In this document: piece after piece, positions 2,639 through 38,044 of the stretch
How the letters are laid out: every line of letters begins with the position of its first letter
Numbering within the stretch: position 1 is the first letter of the stretch
From: Candidatus Hadarchaeota archaeon
Lineage (GTDB): Archaea > Hadarchaeota > Hadarchaeia > Hadarchaeales > Hadarchaeaceae
DNA: 42,833 bases
Assembly (NCBI GenBank): GCA_040755315.1
Contig: JBFMBF010000008.1
Span: 1 to 42,833, forward strand
Direction: 5' to 3'
Notes under the pieces: model-generated
The model's database searches: none
What the model was told of the DNA's origin: nothing
Seen by the model: the letters and a program-made list of their open reading frames with translations, nothing else
Program-made: the position numbers and the translations under genes

Positions 2639-3343
2639 CTACTCTTCTGGGCTCGCGACCAGCAGCAGCGACCTCTTGCAAAGCTCCTGGACAGTTTCCG
2701 GCTGTACAAACCTCTCGCCGAGGTACTCTCTCAGGATGGGGGTCAAATCCCACGCCACACACCTGAATTCAAGCCCGTTGGTTACCCCGCTGTCGTCTTT
2801 TTTCTGCCCATTCCCGAAGCCTTTCACAACTTCATCAAATGAGCCACCATTGCTGATACACTCCCCAACCTTGGCGCCGACCTCCACCGCCAGCTCCCTG
2901 TAGGCTCCCAGCGCCTCCTTGAACCCTCTCCAGCCGCCCGCCACCTCCAGCCGCCCAAGAACTTTCGCCCCGAAATGCTCCTGCAGCTGCTCCAGAGGCT
3001 CCTCCCCGAAGCTCAGATAAGGCACCTTGAGGTGGGCCGCAAGCATCAGGGCCCGCAGATCAGTCAGCGGCACCTCATGCTCAGCCTCGAAAAGCAACCT
3101 CCTAGAAAGCTCGTCGAGGACCTCCGGCAGGCAGACCACGAGAAGCTGCCCATCGCGCACGAACTGGCTCACCAAGCTGTAGCTGACCGCACGGCTCCTC
3201 ACAGAAATCAGCCTGTCCCTCGCAAGCCAAGAGTAGGTCGCCGATGGCAGGTAAAGTTCTCCGCCACCCACAAGCTGCCTTGCCCGCTCAAAGTTCGCCC
3301 GGTCGCCGATCACGCTGATGTCACAAACTTCCCCAAACCTCAT
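2639..3343 (-). CDS. Hypothetical protein with degenerate PIN-domain-like N-terminus
   Basis: ATG at 3343 preceded by RBS GGAGGTGA; the longer ORF-track start runs into the tRNA-like gene. VCDISVI, LYLPSATYSWL and TDLRALMLAAHLKVPYLSF follow PIN/VapC motif spacing. Confidence 0.5.
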   Translation of the reverse strand: MRFGEVCDISVIGDRANFERARQLVGGGELYLPSATYSWLARDRLISVRSRAVSYSLVSQFVRDGQLLVVCLPEVLDELSRRLLFEAEHEVPLTDLRALMLAAHLKVPYLSFGEEPLEQLQEHFGAKVLGRLEVAGGWRGFKEALGAYRELAVEVGAKVGECISNGGSFDEVVKGFGNGQKKDDSGVTNGLEFRCVAWDLTPILREYLGERFVQPETVQELCKRSLLLVASPEE

Positions 3344-3376: not shown

Positions 3377-3474
3377 CGCCGGGGGCGGGATTCGAACCCG
3401 CGAGGACCGGTGTGTCCACTCGGTCGACGCCCGAGTCCGTTCCCGAGCCCGTTGCCAAGCTCCGGCACCCCGGC
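3377..3474 (-). tRNA. tRNA-Ser-like (type II) gene with abnormal anticodon region; anticodon cannot be assigned
   Basis: Minus strand reads GCCGGGG TG CCG GAGCTTGGCAA CGG G CTCGG [GAACGGACTCGGGCGTCGA] CCGAG T GGAC ACACCG GTCC TC GCGGG TTCGAAT CCCGC CCCCGGC G. It has a perfect 7-bp acceptor stem, T arm, long variable arm and G73, but 19 nt instead of 7 inside the anticodon stem. Confidence 0.75.
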
Positions 3475-3586
3475 ATCGCGCCACCTGTAACCAAAAGTTT
3501 TATACAAAAACCCAGCGGATTGTTAATTGACGCCCGAGTCCGTTCCCGAGCCCGTTGCCAAGCTCCGGCACCCCGGCATCGCGCCA
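3426..3586. repeat. Exact 58-bp direct repeat (3426-3483 = 3529-3586) covering the 5' half and leader of the tRNA-like gene
   Basis: GACGCCCGAGTCCGTTCCCGAGCCCGTTGCCAAGCTCCGGCACCCCGGCATCGCGCCA occurs twice, separated by a 45-bp AT-rich spacer. Confidence 0.95.
3491..3505 (+). promoter_or_regulatory. Putative archaeal BRE + TATA box (possibly bidirectional)
   Basis: CCAAAAG followed by TTTTATAC; standard spacing predicts a start near 3528-3530, where the second repeat copy begins. Confidence 0.5.
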
Positions 3587-3601
3587 AAAATTTAAGTAAA
3601 A

Positions 3602-3668
3602 GCTGAACCAGACTAATGGTTGGTCGGGTGATCAACCTGGTCTTCAGCCGGGTTTTTTCTTTTTTTTT
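3602..3668 (+). terminator. Long hairpin followed by a T-tract (3' end of a putative small RNA)
   Basis: GCTGA-(ACC)-AGACTA-(AT)-GGTTGGTC[GGGT]GATCAACC-TGGTCT-TCAGC at 3602-3648, then 15 T in 16 nt at 3653-3668. Two G-U pairs favour folding on the + strand. Confidence 0.6.
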
Positions 3669-3733
3669 CACAGTTCTCCCGCCGAACCTTGGAGCGACCG
3701 GGGTATTTAAGGGAGAAAAATGCACAGAAATGC

Positions 3734-26092: not shown

Positions 26093-27345
26093 AGGCCCCT
26101 CGGATCCGTTATTTTCCCCTTCAGGGCGGAGGCAGCGACGGTCGCAGGGGAGCCGAGGTAAACCTCTGACTCAGGGCTGCCCTGCCTCCCCTTGAAGTTC
26201 CTGTTGGAGGAGGAAATGCAGACCTCCCCCGGCCCGATGACGCCGACGTGGGCGCCCATGCAGGCGGCGCAGCTTGGCGACTCGACAATGGCTCCGGCCG
26301 CGACAAAAATCTCAAACAGGCCCTCCTTCAGAGCCATGGTGTAAACCTCGCGCGATGCCGGTGCGACTATCAGTCTGACGCTTTTCGGGATTTTCTTCCC
26401 CTTCAGGATTTTTGCGGCAGCCCTGAAGTCTTCCATCCTGCCGTTCGTGCAGGAGCCGAGGAAGGCCTGGTCGACCTCCTTCCCCTCGACTTCCCTCACG
26501 GCCTTGACGTTGTCGACGGAGTGCGGGCAGGCGACTTGGGGCTCCAGCTTGCTGACGTCGTAATCGCGCGACTCCACGTATGAAGCTCCTGAGTCGCTTG
26601 TGACTGGCTTTAGCGGCTCGCTTGTTCTCCCCTTCAGGTACTCGAGCGTCGCGCTGTCGGCGGCGACTATCGCGGCCTTTGCCCCCATCTCCACGCCCAT
26701 GTTGCACATTGTCAGCCTCCCGTCGACGCTTATGTCGTGAACCCCACTGCCCGTGAACTCCACAGCGCGGTATGTGGCGCCGTCCATCCCGACATCGCCG
26801 ATTACTTTCAGGATTAAGTCCTTTGACATCACTGGGGGCTTCAGCTTTCCCTCCACGTTGAAAAGCATGCTTTCTGGCACCCTGAACCAGAGCTTCCCGG
26901 ACGCTATGACGGCCGCCATGTCGGTGGAGCCGACGCCGGTGGCGAAGCAGCCCAGTGCCCCGTAGGTCGTCGTGTGGGAGTCGGCGCCGACAACGAGGCT
27001 TCCAGGCAGGGCGAAGCCCTTCTCAGGGAGAACCTCGTGGCAGATGCCCTCAAAGATGTCGTAGAAGTTCTGTATCTTGTGCTCGGCCGCGAATTTTCTC
27101 AACATTAGATGGTTCATGGCGGCGTCCAGGGAACTGGCCGGGGCCTGGTGGTCGAAAGTTATGACAATCCTGCGCGGGTCCCAGACCTTCTTCACGCCCA
27201 TTTCTTCCATCGAGTGGAGGGTGAGGGGGCCGGTCAGGTCGTGCATCATTGCCGCGTCGACCTTTCCTTCAACAATCTCTCCCGGGGTGACCTCTTTCTT
27301 GCCGGAGGCTCTCGCCAGAATTTTTTCCGAAATAGTCATTGCCAT
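26089..27345 (-). CDS. leuC: 3-isopropylmalate dehydratase (aconitase family) large subunit
   Basis: FDH, GICH, GADSHT, GSCTNGR, CAACMG, SNRNF.GR; three Fe-S cysteines present. Confidence 0.9.
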   Translation of the reverse strand: MAMTISEKILARASGKKEVTPGEIVEGKVDAAMMHDLTGPLTLHSMEEMGVKKVWDPRRIVITFDHQAPASSLDAAMNHLMLRKFAAEHKIQNFYDIFEGICHEVLPEKGFALPGSLVVGADSHTTTYGALGCFATGVGSTDMAAVIASGKLWFRVPESMLFNVEGKLKPPVMSKDLILKVIGDVGMDGATYRAVEFTGSGVHDISVDGRLTMCNMGVEMGAKAAIVAADSATLEYLKGRTSEPLKPVTSDSGASYVESRDYDVSKLEPQVACPHSVDNVKAVREVEGKEVDQAFLGSCTNGRMEDFRAAAKILKGKKIPKSVRLIVAPASREVYTMALKEGLFEIFVAAGAIVESPSCAACMGAHVGVIGPGEVCISSSNRNFKGRQGSPESEVYLGSPATVAASALKGKITDPRGL

Positions 27346-27424
27346 GTTATCCCATTGGTTTTATGCGGCCAATTTAAAAGATTATGTGCCGCGGGAGGAT
27401 TTTCAAAACATTACAGAGCGAGTT

Positions 27425-27806
27425 GTGCACACGTGTGTAGTTAGTAGTAAAACATGGGCTGAAGGAGTGCACACGTGTGTAGTGTTCATCTAAAGTTTGC
27501 CCTGAAATGAAACCATTTCATGTCTGGTCCTTCAAAACGCTCCAACAGTTTTATGAATTTGCCCGTATGTTTTTCTTTCACGAGATAAACCGACCCCCCA
27601 ATTTTTTCCCAGTTTTTCCTTGGCAATTCCCCGAGAAATGCATTGAGCCGCGCATAAAACCATCGCCTGCCGTAGGCTTTCCTACGCAGCTCCCAAGTGA
27701 ACAAAACCCACTCTTGACCGTGTTCACACGTGTGCATAATCTCGCCAAAGCTTTGGGTGAACTCGGTTTATAAAGGCAAAAAACCGGCACTGCACACGTG
27801 TGCAGT
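27425..27806. repeat. Four copies of the palindrome CACACGTGTG (27428-27437, 27470-27479, 27725-27734, 27793-27802)
   Basis: Copies 1 and 2 share the 17-bp direct repeat GTGCACACGTGTGTAGT; copy 4 extends to the perfect 18-bp palindrome ACTGCACACGTGTGCAGT (27789-27806). Confidence 0.92.
27486..27737 (-). CDS. Small basic hypothetical protein, Cas2/VapD/PaaX-central-like pattern
   Basis: 83 aa; WVLFTWEL..RRWFYARL..WEKIGGSVYLV resembles the Cas2-like YDI..R..L..QxSV pattern. TTTATAAA lies at 27767-27774, about 30 bp upstream of the ATG. Confidence 0.55.
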   Translation of the reverse strand: MHTCEHGQEWVLFTWELRRKAYGRRWFYARLNAFLGELPRKNWEKIGGSVYLVKEKHTGKFIKLLERFEGPDMKWFHFRANFR

Positions 27807-29476
27807 CAGCGCGACAACTTCCTGACGGCCCCGTCTGCCGCCGATGTTACTGTGCGAGAGTAAATAGCCAAGTACCCGTGGCCAGCACGCGGCACCGGCG
27901 CCCTGAACCTCACCAGCCTCCGCTTGAGTTCTGCCGGCGCGACAAGCAGGTCAAGCTTCCTGCGCGGTATGTCTATCAATATCTTGTCGCCCTCCCTGAC
28001 AACCGCGAGCGGCCCCTTCTCAACGGCCTCGGGTGAAACATGACCAATGCACGCACCGCGCGTTCCCCCGGAAAATCGTCCGTCAGTAATAAGCGAGACC
28101 GACTCCGAAAGCCCCATGCTTGTTATCGCCGCCGTCAGTACCAGCATCTCTCTCATCCCCGGCCCGCCCTTCGGTCCTTCTCTCCTGATGACAACGACAT
28201 CCCCCGACCTGATCCTCTTCCCGTGGATAGCTCTCGTCGCATCCTCCTCGCTGTTGAACACTCTGGCCGGCCCGCTATGGCGCAGCATCTTCTGGCTGAC
28301 GCCCGAATACTTCACGACAGAGCCATCGGGTGCAAGGCTCCCATAAAGAACAGCTATCCCACCGTCCCTGTGGTATGGCCTGCCCAGCGGCCTTATCACG
28401 TCGTTGGCTGGCGGTTCCTTTATCAGCCTTAGATTCTCCTTCACTGTGCGGCCGCTGACAGTCAAAGGCGTCCCCCTGATGTGCTTCCCCAGCCTCTTCA
28501 TCAGCGCAGGCACCCCACCAGCCCTCTCGAAGTCGAGCATCGAGTGCGGCCCAACGGGACGCAGATTGCAAACGTTCGGCACCCTCCTCCCAATTCTGTC
28601 AAAAGCATCAAGGCTCAGCTTCAGCCCGGCCTCGTGCGCGATTGCAGGCAGGTGAAGGACTGTGTTGGTCGAGCCGCCCATCGCCATATCCACCACCACT
28701 GCATTCTCGAAAGCCGCCCTCGTCATTATCTTCCTCGGCGTGACTCCATCCTTCAGCAGCTTGACCACCTGGGCGCCGCTCTTCTTGGCGAGCCTGAGCT
28801 TCTTGGCGTCCGTGGCGTGAGCCGCCCCCATCCCCGGCAGCGAGATGCCCAGCGCCTCCCCAAGGCACGCCATGGTGTTCGCGGTGAAAAGCCCCGCACA
28901 CGAGCCGCAGCCAGGGCAGCACGACTGCTCAATCATCCTCGCCTCCTGCTCCGTCATCTTCCCCGCCTTCACGGCCCCGACCGCCTCGAACGCGCTTATG
29001 ACGTCAAGGGACTTCCCTCGGTACTCGCCCGGCAGCATCGGGCCGCCCGTCACCATTATCCCCGGGATGTCCACGCGGGCCATCGCCATCATCATGCCCG
29101 GCACAATCTTGTCGCAACTGGAGACGCAGACGACGGCGTCGAACCTGTGGGCCTCGAGCATCGCCTCCACGCTGTCCGCGACTATTTCCCTCGACGGCAG
29201 CGAGTAACACATCCCCTTCGTGCCCATGGACAGCCCGTCGCAAATTCCAATGGTGTTAAACTCGAACGGGGTGCCTCCTGCCTCCCTGACACCGGCCGCC
29301 ACGGCCTTCCCGACCTCCCTCAGATGAATGTGGCCCGGCACGATGTTGTTGTATGAGTTTGCAATCGCGACAAAGGGGTGCCCGAAGTCCGCGCCCGTCA
29401 GCCCGACCGCCCTCAGAAGGGCCCTGCGAGGAAGGCTCTCGATGCCTTCCACAACCTCGCGACTCCTGAGCTTCAT
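27806..29476 (-). CDS. ilvD: Dihydroxy-acid dehydratase
   Basis: [50 protein letters not shown]. Confidence 0.97.
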
Positions 29477-36488: not shown

Positions 36489-38044
36489 GTAACTGTATAG
36501 CTGATTTCCCCCGATTTTTGTCCAAAAAATTTTGACCGAAAAGTTTACGCCAAGTTCTTACAATAAAATGTGGAGGCTGGCCAGAGGTGGTGGTTACAGA
36601 AGGCCAGCACATGCAGAAAAAAGAAAATCAGCAGGTGGAAATCCCGGAAATCGTCCGGAAGGCGATTGATGAATACCCTGAGCTGAAGCCCGTCTTCGAC
36701 TTCTTGCTCGATAAGATACGATTCCTTGAAGCGCGCCTGAGGAAATACGAAAACCCGCACGTGCCATCCTCGAAACAAATAGTGAAAGAGACGAAGGCGC
36801 CCAGGGAGCCAAAGCCGAGGGGCGCCCCCGAGAACCACAAGGGGGCCACGAGAGAAAAGCCGGCCCCAGACATGACCGTTGAGCTGAAGCCAAACTCCTG
36901 TCCAAAGCCGGGGTGCGGGTCCAAGGGGGTCCGGGTGTTGAAGAAGCGTAGAAAGACCGTTGGGGACATCATAATCATCAAAATCACGACGGAGTACATC
37001 TACTACGAGTGCGAGTGCGAGGACTGCAGCACGCAGTTCGTGACGGGGTGCGAGGAACTCCCCAAGGAGGGGAACTTCGGCCCGAACATCTCGTCCCTCT
37101 GGGCGGCCCTGCACTACGTTGGGACGGTGCCCTTCGCCAGGCTGGCGGCGATATCCGAGAACTGCTTCTGCATGCCCATCACCCCAAAGGGGGTGGAGGA
37201 CGCGATATACCGCGCCGCTGAGGTGTTCGAGCCGAACTTCAGGCGGATCAGGAGCCGGGTGGGCAGGTCGAAGTACGCGAGGAGCGACGAGACGACCTAC
37301 TCCTTCAACGGGGAGAAGTACTGGGCGTGGAACATCTCGGGCAAGCGCGACACCCTGGTCCTGCTGAGGGAGACGAGGGGCTCGGCCGTGCTGAAGGAGG
37401 TGTTTGGGGATTTCCTGGACGGGATACTGAACTCCGACTGCTTCAAGGGCTACGACAAGTTCAAGGCGGGGGAGTACCAGAAGTGCTGGGCGCATGTGCT
37501 CAGGGACGCGGAGGACCTCGCGAAGCACGACGATGACGGGAAATGGCTGCACCGCGAGCTCTCTCGCATGTATCGCTACATCCTGAAAGTGAAACGCGAG
37601 GGGGGCGAAGGCAGCCCAAGGGTGGAGAGGTGGGTCAAACGGTCCAAGGAACGGATAATGGAGTTCGTGGAGAAAAACTACAGGTCGAAGGCCGTCCTGA
37701 ACCTGGCCCTGCGGCTGTCGAAGTATCGCGACCACTGGTTCACCTGCCTCAAGTACGAGTTCGTCGAACCCACAAACAACGCCTCGGAGCGGGACATAAG
37801 GAAGCTGGTCGTCGCGAGGAAGATCTCCGGCGCCCACAGGAGCGAGCTGGGGATGCGCTCGAGGGAGATCATGATGTCGACCATCCTCACCTCGCAGAAG
37901 AGAGGGGAAAATCCGTTCGAGTTCATACGCGGCGGAATTGAAAAACACAACATGGACTGTTCTCTGAAACCCCCATAGAATACAAAAGAACCCGGAGCAA
38001 ATGCGATTTGCGGGGCTATAAAAGCGGGTCAGCTATACAGTTAC
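36489..38044 (+). mobile_element. IS66-family insertion sequence, single-ORF type, 1556 bp
   Basis: Perfect 16-bp terminal inverted repeats GTAACTGTATAGCTGA (36489-36504) and TCAGCTATACAGTTAC (38029-38044) enclose the transposase. Confidence 0.93.
36587..37978 (+). CDS. IS66 family DDE transposase
   Basis: Coiled-coil plus NPHVPSS, Zn-finger cysteines, SDET, LNSD, QKCWAH, PTNNASERDIR. Confidence 0.93.
   Translation: MVVTEGQHMQKKENQQVEIPEIVRKAIDEYPELKPVFDFLLDKIRFLEARLRKYENPHVPSSKQIVKETKAPREPKPRGAPENHKGATREKPAPDMTVELKPNSCPKPGCGSKGVRVLKKRRKTVGDIIIIKITTEYIYYECECEDCSTQFVTGCEELPKEGNFGPNISSLWAALHYVGTVPFARLAAISENCFCMPITPKGVEDAIYRAAEVFEPNFRRIRSRVGRSKYARSDETTYSFNGEKYWAWNISGKRDTLVLLRETRGSAVLKEVFGDFLDGILNSDCFKGYDKFKAGEYQKCWAHVLRDAEDLAKHDDDGKWLHRELSRMYRYILKVKREGGEGSPRVERWVKRSKERIMEFVEKNYRSKAVLNLALRLSKYRDHWFTCLKYEFVEPTNNASERDIRKLVVARKISGAHRSELGMRSREIMMSTILTSQKRGENPFEFIRGGIEKHNMDCSLKPP

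Follow-up and report, generated by a model that had tools for sequence, protein, structure and literature searches.

Toxin–antitoxin (TA) systems of type VIII, represented by CreTA of Haloarcula and SdsR–RyeA of Escherichia coli, are made of RNA on both sides. SdsR is a small RNA that targets mRNAs. CreT is described as an addictive toxin that attacks translation via tRNA, acting as a mini-mRNA that ties up a host tRNA (PMC12737573), and its partner CreA as a repressor of the toxin promoter through Cascade. Here we describe a candidate module, likewise with both parts RNA, in a 42,833-nucleotide stretch of a Candidatus Hadarchaeota genome (contig JBFMBF010000008.1, positions 1–42,833; hereafter the window). 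It comprises a supernumerary tRNA-like gene on the minus strand (3474–3377) and, upstream of it, opposite-strand cassettes predicted to give antisense RNA. The candidate toxin would be a tRNA itself, and what the cassette can base-pair with is the tRNA anticodon arm, not a promoter. The CRISPR-repeat-flanked antitoxin within a cas locus that characterizes CreTA is missing at the window locus, which contains no repeat array, and the Rfam scan of the window returned no CRISPR family at the gathering threshold. If toxicity were shown, the module would count as a type VIII TA system, with an RNA antitoxin predicted beside the toxin.

Several other systems share single traits with this locus. The +1 frameshift suppressors sufA and sufD carry an extra anticodon-loop base, as is predicted for the Arg-derived members of the family described below, but they are laboratory-selected mutants of housekeeping tRNAs, with neither a dedicated promoter nor an antisense partner. 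Partial tRNA repeats ending in the anticodon loop are also the pattern left by tyrosine integrases at attachment (att) sites. Unlike such remnants, the repeats in the window enclose no element (45 bp separate them), the genes targeted are supernumerary, and promoter and terminator signals accompany each copy. The SOS-induced type I system tisB/istR-1 likewise places a toxin under a stress regulon and its antisense RNA under a constitutive promoter, but tisB encodes a peptide whose translation istR-1 blocks (PMC11951105). Allo-tRNAs combine Ser identity with a non-Ser anticodon, GUC being among the commonest (Mukai et al.; PMC5389517, PMC7609411); they are described as lethal on induction in E. 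coli (PMC5389517) and as occurring near protein TA systems (PMC5389517, PMC7609411). At the sequence level the window gene and its orthologues show the same combination (G73, a long variable arm, and GTC or GAA). Allo-tRNAs, however, are bacterial and have 8/4 or 9/3 acceptor/T stems, whereas the window gene is archaeal and has 7/5. The word 'antisense' is absent from the main text of both papers (PMC5389517, PMC7609411), though supplements of the allo-tRNA paper could show related loci. Our literature search, which covered few subscription journals, returned no description of a tRNA/anti-anticodon RNA system; the candidate system is real and recurrent, as judged from genome comparison, and apparently undescribed.

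The tRNA-like gene and its two cassettes

The tRNA-like gene (98 nt) scored 35.1 bits against Rfam family RF00005 in a local scan (gathering score 29, E 1.2e-5), and ARAGORN called it tRNA-Asp(gtc). A scan of the whole window at gathering found nothing, and neither scan returned any family except tRNA. A 7-bp acceptor stem, a 5-bp T stem, G73 and a long variable arm give it a Ser-type body; over the acceptor, D-stem and T-arm, the host's three Ser tRNAs and its Cys tRNA tied as best match (30 of 38 positions). Its 7-nt anticodon loop (3424–3430, minus strand) carries the triplet GTC (3428–3426), with atypical G32 and C33. Because a canonical tRNA-Asp(GTC) is present elsewhere in the genome (G000 C13, G000 being the genome of the window), the tRNA-like gene is extra. 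The long variable arm and G32/C33 also depart from the short variable loop, pyrimidine 32 and U33 of canonical archaeal tRNA-Asp, and the 7/5 stems and GTC from the 9/4 acceptor domain and UCA anticodon that define archaeal tRNA-Sec (PMC7609411). By inspection, an intron-containing, split or permuted tRNA, with a bulge-helix-bulge motif to remove the extra 12 nt or join the halves, fails as well: read with a 19-nt loop, the gene gives at most 2/4 central pairs, and the duplicate described next is a direct repeat that, unlike the leader of a split tRNA, is unable to base-pair with the other half. Orthologues in two same-genus genomes (G001 and G002) retain the Ser-type body, with anticodon GTC in G001 and GAA in G002. 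Since SerRS recognizes the variable arm and G73 (PMC7609411), the window gene would be expected to insert serine at Asp codons and the GAA orthologue at Phe codons.

The 5′ half and leader of the gene are duplicated exactly 45 bp away, as a sequence-only reading of the locus had claimed (3426–3483 and 3529–3586; 58/58 identity, 103 nt start to start), and the duplicated segment terminates exactly at anticodon position 36. That reading had also reported a plus-strand transcription factor B recognition element (BRE) and TATA-like box, CCAAAAG-TTTTATAC, and a T-tract after the duplicate; we recovered both, at 3491–3505 and 3653–3668. The first, which recurs at the same distance in other modules, ends 24 nt before the first base complementary to the window tRNA. 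The second is the predicted terminator of the antisense RNA or RNAs, matching the T-rich tract that follows the copy in 24/24 measured upstream cassettes. Between them, the predicted new antisense segment (3527–3586, plus strand, including the exact copy) opens with the codon that pairs with the anticodon and continues through the D arm and the acceptor 5′ strand to the leader. Its predicted net binding is −70 kcal/mol to the window tRNA-like RNA and −15 at best to 36 canonical host tRNAs; an antisense RNA that poisons host tRNAs was rejected on this weak binding.

The stretch behind the duplicate (3584–3668) aligns with the anti-GAA cassette of G002. It opens with its own plus-strand BRE and TATA-like box (3584–3598, box 3591–3598), aligned with the promoters of the G002 and G001 cassettes, and includes a predicted antisense segment against a Phe-type GAA anticodon arm (3620–3652, plus strand; 19/21 nt match to the G002 GAA gene). 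Predicted net binding, −13.8 kcal/mol to the G002 GAA gene and +2.4 to the window gene, suggests that this cassette is unsuited to the resident GTC gene. The sequence-only reading had seen here a hairpin of about 19 bp whose G-U pairs favoured the plus strand. A hairpin is predicted at 3602–3648 (plus strand, −23 kcal/mol, z −2.7), where it would form only in read-through RNA, but z-scores favour neither strand (−2.49 on the plus and −2.52 on the minus strand for 3587–3668), and the orthologous stretches of the two same-genus genomes lack it and form other pairings (z −1.46 and −0.73). Given the alignment with the G002 cassette, we read the region as an older antisense cassette and the hairpin as probably incidental rather than a designed part of the RNA. 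Both G001 and G002 have a single short, imperfect anticodon-arm copy before the gene, with opposite-strand BRE/TATA and T-tract. Because the older cassette matches a relative's Phe-anticodon version, the window locus may record an antidote switch from an old anti-GAA to a new anti-GTC cassette. Two further proposals found no support: the likely tRNA promoter lies at 3677–3719 on the minus strand, so that a single 45-bp spacer would not drive both RNAs, and the predicted antisense RNA typical of the family is ~15–45 nt, not ~130 nt.

An extra A-tract-led segment lies upstream of the anti-GAA cassette in G002 (L032, G002 C6:30348–30430), possibly a decayed older cassette.

A family of modules in Hadarchaeota

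Low-threshold ARAGORN with introns produced 388 mostly spurious calls, and a T-arm search was used instead. In Hadarchaeota we found 29 tRNA-like genes whose anticodon arm is repeated in a short copy nearby, a count that omits one partial case (G000 C28), eight fused remnants and a decayed gene without a cassette (G002 C10). Among 41 tRNA-type genes tested in the window genome, four have an upstream self-copy (local alignment scores 37–98), and none of the other 37 exceeds 27 in any of the four flanks. Canonical tRNA genes are free of self-copies, as scored by a test that overlooked the weak downstream copy of the tRNA-like gene C38 (score 25). A sequence model built on 15 upstream-type modules (4 from G000, 3 from G001, 7 from G002 and 1 from a metagenome contig) matched at E 1e-14 in 10/45 genomes of the same family and 0/20 of other families, with 41 candidates scored per genome and most of these 65 genomes incomplete. 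The same search yielded nine modules outside the model, all from the same family and three of them near-identical; the promoter motif was found by pattern in 8/9, and a T-tract follows the cassette. An additional upstream case, in G017, has a CGC anticodon and looks Leu-like by eye; it is without a clear T-tract or regulon motif. In a second layout the cassette is downstream and convergent, with four clear cases; in a fifth, G000 C28, the cassette matches partly. In view of these downstream cassettes, G000 C28, C38 and a pair of intron-less genes do not count as cognate tRNAs lacking antisense. Among the matches listed in a metagenome scan, at least 126 motif matches were examined, of which at least 41 had a TATA box and at least one was an intact module (L207). 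Viral contigs gave 6 matches to the promoter core, 13 to the intron pattern and none to the Ser-type start, with no module among them.

The copies follow the anticodons of their genes. The anticodon triplet is identical in copy and gene in 28/29 modules, a concordance that is inflated because modules were found partly through having a copy, and a 10-nt stem-and-loop key allowing one mismatch finds the gene's own flank in 26/29 cases and 9/672 cross-pairs with a different triplet. Most cassettes end at anticodon position 36; copies other than the 58-nt duplicate of the window are 14–40 nt long. Opposite-strand BRE/TATA and a T-tract accompany 24/24 measured upstream cassettes, and the distance from the TATA end to the first paired base is 20–25 nt in 14/15 modules and 20–24 nt in 9/9 held-out ones. 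In a copy that acts as antisense RNA, pairing survives A-to-G and C-to-T differences. Transitions favouring G-U pairing on the antisense strand prevailed 37:16 in 14 modules and 8:1 in the nine held out; by module, eight lean this way, three are reversed and three tied, and because the modules are kin the bias is a tendency and not a valid p-value test. The sequence-only reading had proposed an RNA toxin/antitoxin pair and named synteny and covariation in relatives as a check. Both relatives and other loci of the window genome show the layout again, and together with the tracking of the anticodon and the G-U lean this lends strong comparative support to a predicted plus-strand antisense RNA against the tRNA-like RNA, read as a putative TA pair.

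Most members look miscoding on sequence, the Ser-type ones through predicted missense. Read by the rules for bulge-helix-bulge splice motifs, all 14 Arg-derived intron members form 3–4 of 4 helix pairs one base out of register and 1–2 of 4 in the normal register; in the host tRNA-Arg(GCG) the reverse holds, and the motif fits the normal register. Arg-derived members would splice to 8-nt anticodon loops, and two intron-less members already have such a loop. Anticodon loops of 8 nt cause +1 frameshifts. The splice-motif test thereby disfavoured Val/Ala anticodons for the Arg-derived members, and it disfavoured CAT for two G002 members, which read best as TCA. Four Arg-type members carry GCT, a triplet matching ArgRS identity (A20, C35, U36) yet reading Ser codons; their splice register is ambiguous.

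Modules are also swapped and lost, as seen from the differing occupants of a single site, that before the 234-aa gene behind the window module. Genome G006 has no module there, and the regulon promoter drives the orthologue directly; an Arg-derived module occupies the site in four genomes and fused remnants in three, and the window genus has the Ser type. The eight fused remnants merge copy and gene, two of them having intact orthologues in G002, and cassettes without a gene occur as well. G002 C10, with a broken acceptor pair, is the sole regulon-driven tRNA-like gene without a detected cassette.

Two consecutive antisense cassettes lie downstream of 9142 in G001 C6 (L340); the second resembles the tRNA-like gene G000 C28, which is absent from L340, and could be an orphan antidote. 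Several canonical tRNAs (G000 C21:19564–19469, C19:16034–16147 and C22:1524–1631) have inserts in the D loop and at the anticodon.

The shared promoter and the genes behind it

The promoter at 3677–3719 (minus strand; TATA 3711–3704, conserved motif 3696–3677 over the predicted start) is predicted to drive the tRNA-like gene together with the 234-aa gene that follows, and it recurs in the genome. A weight matrix trained on 14 sites found 25 sites in G000 and none in a reversed control; the core motif is present in 22/41 genomes (18/24 within the same family), and most tRNA-like genes of the modules sit behind it. Also behind the motif in G000 are an OB-fold gene with TctA next in line, two operons that encode pilus-type ATPases, a pilin-like gene cluster (judged by eye from the N-termini) and small helix-turn-helix or ribbon-helix-helix proteins; in relatives the motif additionally precedes thermonuclease, AbrB-type and Cas2-like proteins. 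A transformation screen in Methanococcus maripaludis is described as recovering OB-fold, TctA-like, thermonuclease and pilus genes as essential (PMC10133366). As the promoter partners match these transformation genes, we regard the motif as a candidate competence promoter of Hadarchaeota, outlining a candidate competence regulon in an uncultured deep-subsurface archaeal lineage.

The 25 sites include one before the gene of an uncharacterized 107-aa protein, which the motif also precedes in many relatives. The genome has two TFB genes, and the second, divergent one (L293, G000 C23:13521–14400) is a candidate factor for the regulon promoter. One of the pilus-type ATPases behind the promoter (L298, G000 C3:80207–82310) contains an intein-like segment that scores below the Pfam cut-off. 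A second copy of the promoter within the window (27740–27782, minus strand; region 27340–27810) drives an 83-aa open reading frame (27737–27489) with no Pfam match; similar small frames in relatives match Cas2 weakly. Several CACACGTGTG palindromes flank it, and similar clusters around such frames in G017 and G023 suggest self-binding operators.

Proposed miscoding toxins and competing explanations

The reading that we favour, as somewhat more probable than not, is an all-RNA, TA-like module in which a competence-induced miscoding tRNA is the toxin and a constitutive antisense RNA the antitoxin. An extra tRNA-like gene stands behind the promoter motif common to DNA-uptake genes. Once the regulon is switched on, the tRNA would be transcribed, charged and would misread the code, the window member by placing serine at Asp codons and other members by other substitutions, +1 frameshifts or stop read-through, with proteome damage and growth arrest as the expected toxic outcome. 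The short opposite-strand cassette, with its standard BRE/TATA, begins at the anticodon; its RNA would pair with the anticodon loop and open up both the anticodon arm and the D arm. The tRNA would thereby stay silent as long as the cassette is retained and induction does not outpace the antisense. A change of anticodon would leave the old antidote misfitting until a new one is acquired, and the window, with its predicted anti-GAA and anti-GTC cassettes, could be such a case. The module might serve as an addiction device that penalizes cells losing the locus through transformation, or as a growth brake during competence. A more elaborate scenario is speculative, and we doubt it more than we credit it: selfish miscoding tRNAs would have colonized the competence promoter of Hadarchaeota, being made just when transformation could replace their locus, so that transformants losing the short-lived antidote are poisoned. 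Anticodons would then diversify against antidotes, strings of cassettes would be an immunity record, and the window would have caught the switch from GAA to GTC.

If true, this would be a natural system with tRNAs as the poison, each silenced by a dedicated anti-anticodon RNA, in which the mechanisms of toxin and antidote both differ from those of the systems compared above, though the type VIII label would apply. Deliberate mistranslation would be linked to the uptake of DNA, and one could test directly whether selfish elements withstand curing by transformation. Missense and quadruplet-type tRNAs of natural origin would become available, each with its own off switch.

Beyond the inflated concordance, several observations weigh against a miscoding toxin with a matched antidote. 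G000 C38 looks cognate (Asp anticodon, G73, normal splice motif) yet has a cassette, as does the decayed, Leu-like G001 C41 with its Leu anticodon; the copy of G002 C2 deviates at the anticodon; and the reversed G-U biases run counter to the proposed strand. Many genes unrelated to uptake also lie behind the promoter motif, and the pilin-like cluster behind it has no Pfam match. The window gene itself may be impaired in folding, given a 12-nt tandem duplication with one mismatch at its D-arm/anticodon-stem junction (3430–3453, minus strand; lacking in both same-genus orthologues) and a cloverleaf 10 kcal/mol above the minimum-energy fold (−50.7 versus −61.1). In both orthologues, too, the cloverleaf is less stable than the minimum-energy fold, unlike in the host tRNA-Ser(CGA), whose minimum-energy fold is the cloverleaf.

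A host-programmed, non-lethal switch of recoding or tRNA supply during competence, through mild mistranslation, read-through or extra supply and with the antisense removing leaky expression, would also explain the regulon promoter, the several modules per genome and the cassette of the cognate-looking C38. We think it unlikely: anticodons and bodies are freely exchanged between genera at one site, where G006 manages without a module, eight remnants amount to repeated loss, and the G000 uptake genes inspected have intact reading frames, for which no recoding is required. Independently of what the modules do, the 58-nt duplicate could have arisen by recombination between two alleles or as an assembly chimera of an anti-GAA and an anti-GTC allele, the latter leaving the family real but not the caught switch. 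The 58/58 identity of the duplicate extends far beyond the lengths of other copies, and the assembly is 87% complete; but the 45-bp spacer is unique and holds a well-placed promoter, where an extra assembly loop would be expected to repeat the old spacer, and G002 likewise has an extra upstream segment, so that a chimera seems to us improbable.

Non-decoding decoys, occupying a synthetase, the splicing endonuclease, EF-1alpha or an anticodon nuclease and with the antisense as off switch, could account for the atypical positions 32/33 of many members, the relaxed splice motifs and the non-cloverleaf minimum-energy folds. They fit poorly with a cassette that nearly always begins at the anticodon and tracks its changes, with acceptor and T stems that are intact in most members, and with intron-less members having 8-nt loops, and we give decoys little credence. 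Copies that make no antisense RNA, being att-site or mini-element relics or acting in cis on precursor folding, are highly improbable: the window duplicate does correspond to the 5′ half of a tRNA and stops in the anticodon loop, but upstream cassettes carry opposite-strand promoters at a fixed distance and T-tracts, the G-U bias runs in the antisense direction, copies lie either upstream or downstream, canonical tRNA genes lack them, and none of 28 window proteins scanned is an integrase, the genome's single one being on another contig.

Directly behind the tRNA-like gene lies the 234-aa gene (2639–3343, minus strand), for which Atlas features give PIN/DUF3368-like as a lead and a Pfam search no match; relatives of the protein adjoining the module occur in Candidatus Hadarchaeota at 91% and 59% identity. 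The locus is flanked by HerA/NurA and ArsB-type transporter genes, and an IS66-family transposase is encoded further along the window at 36587–37978.
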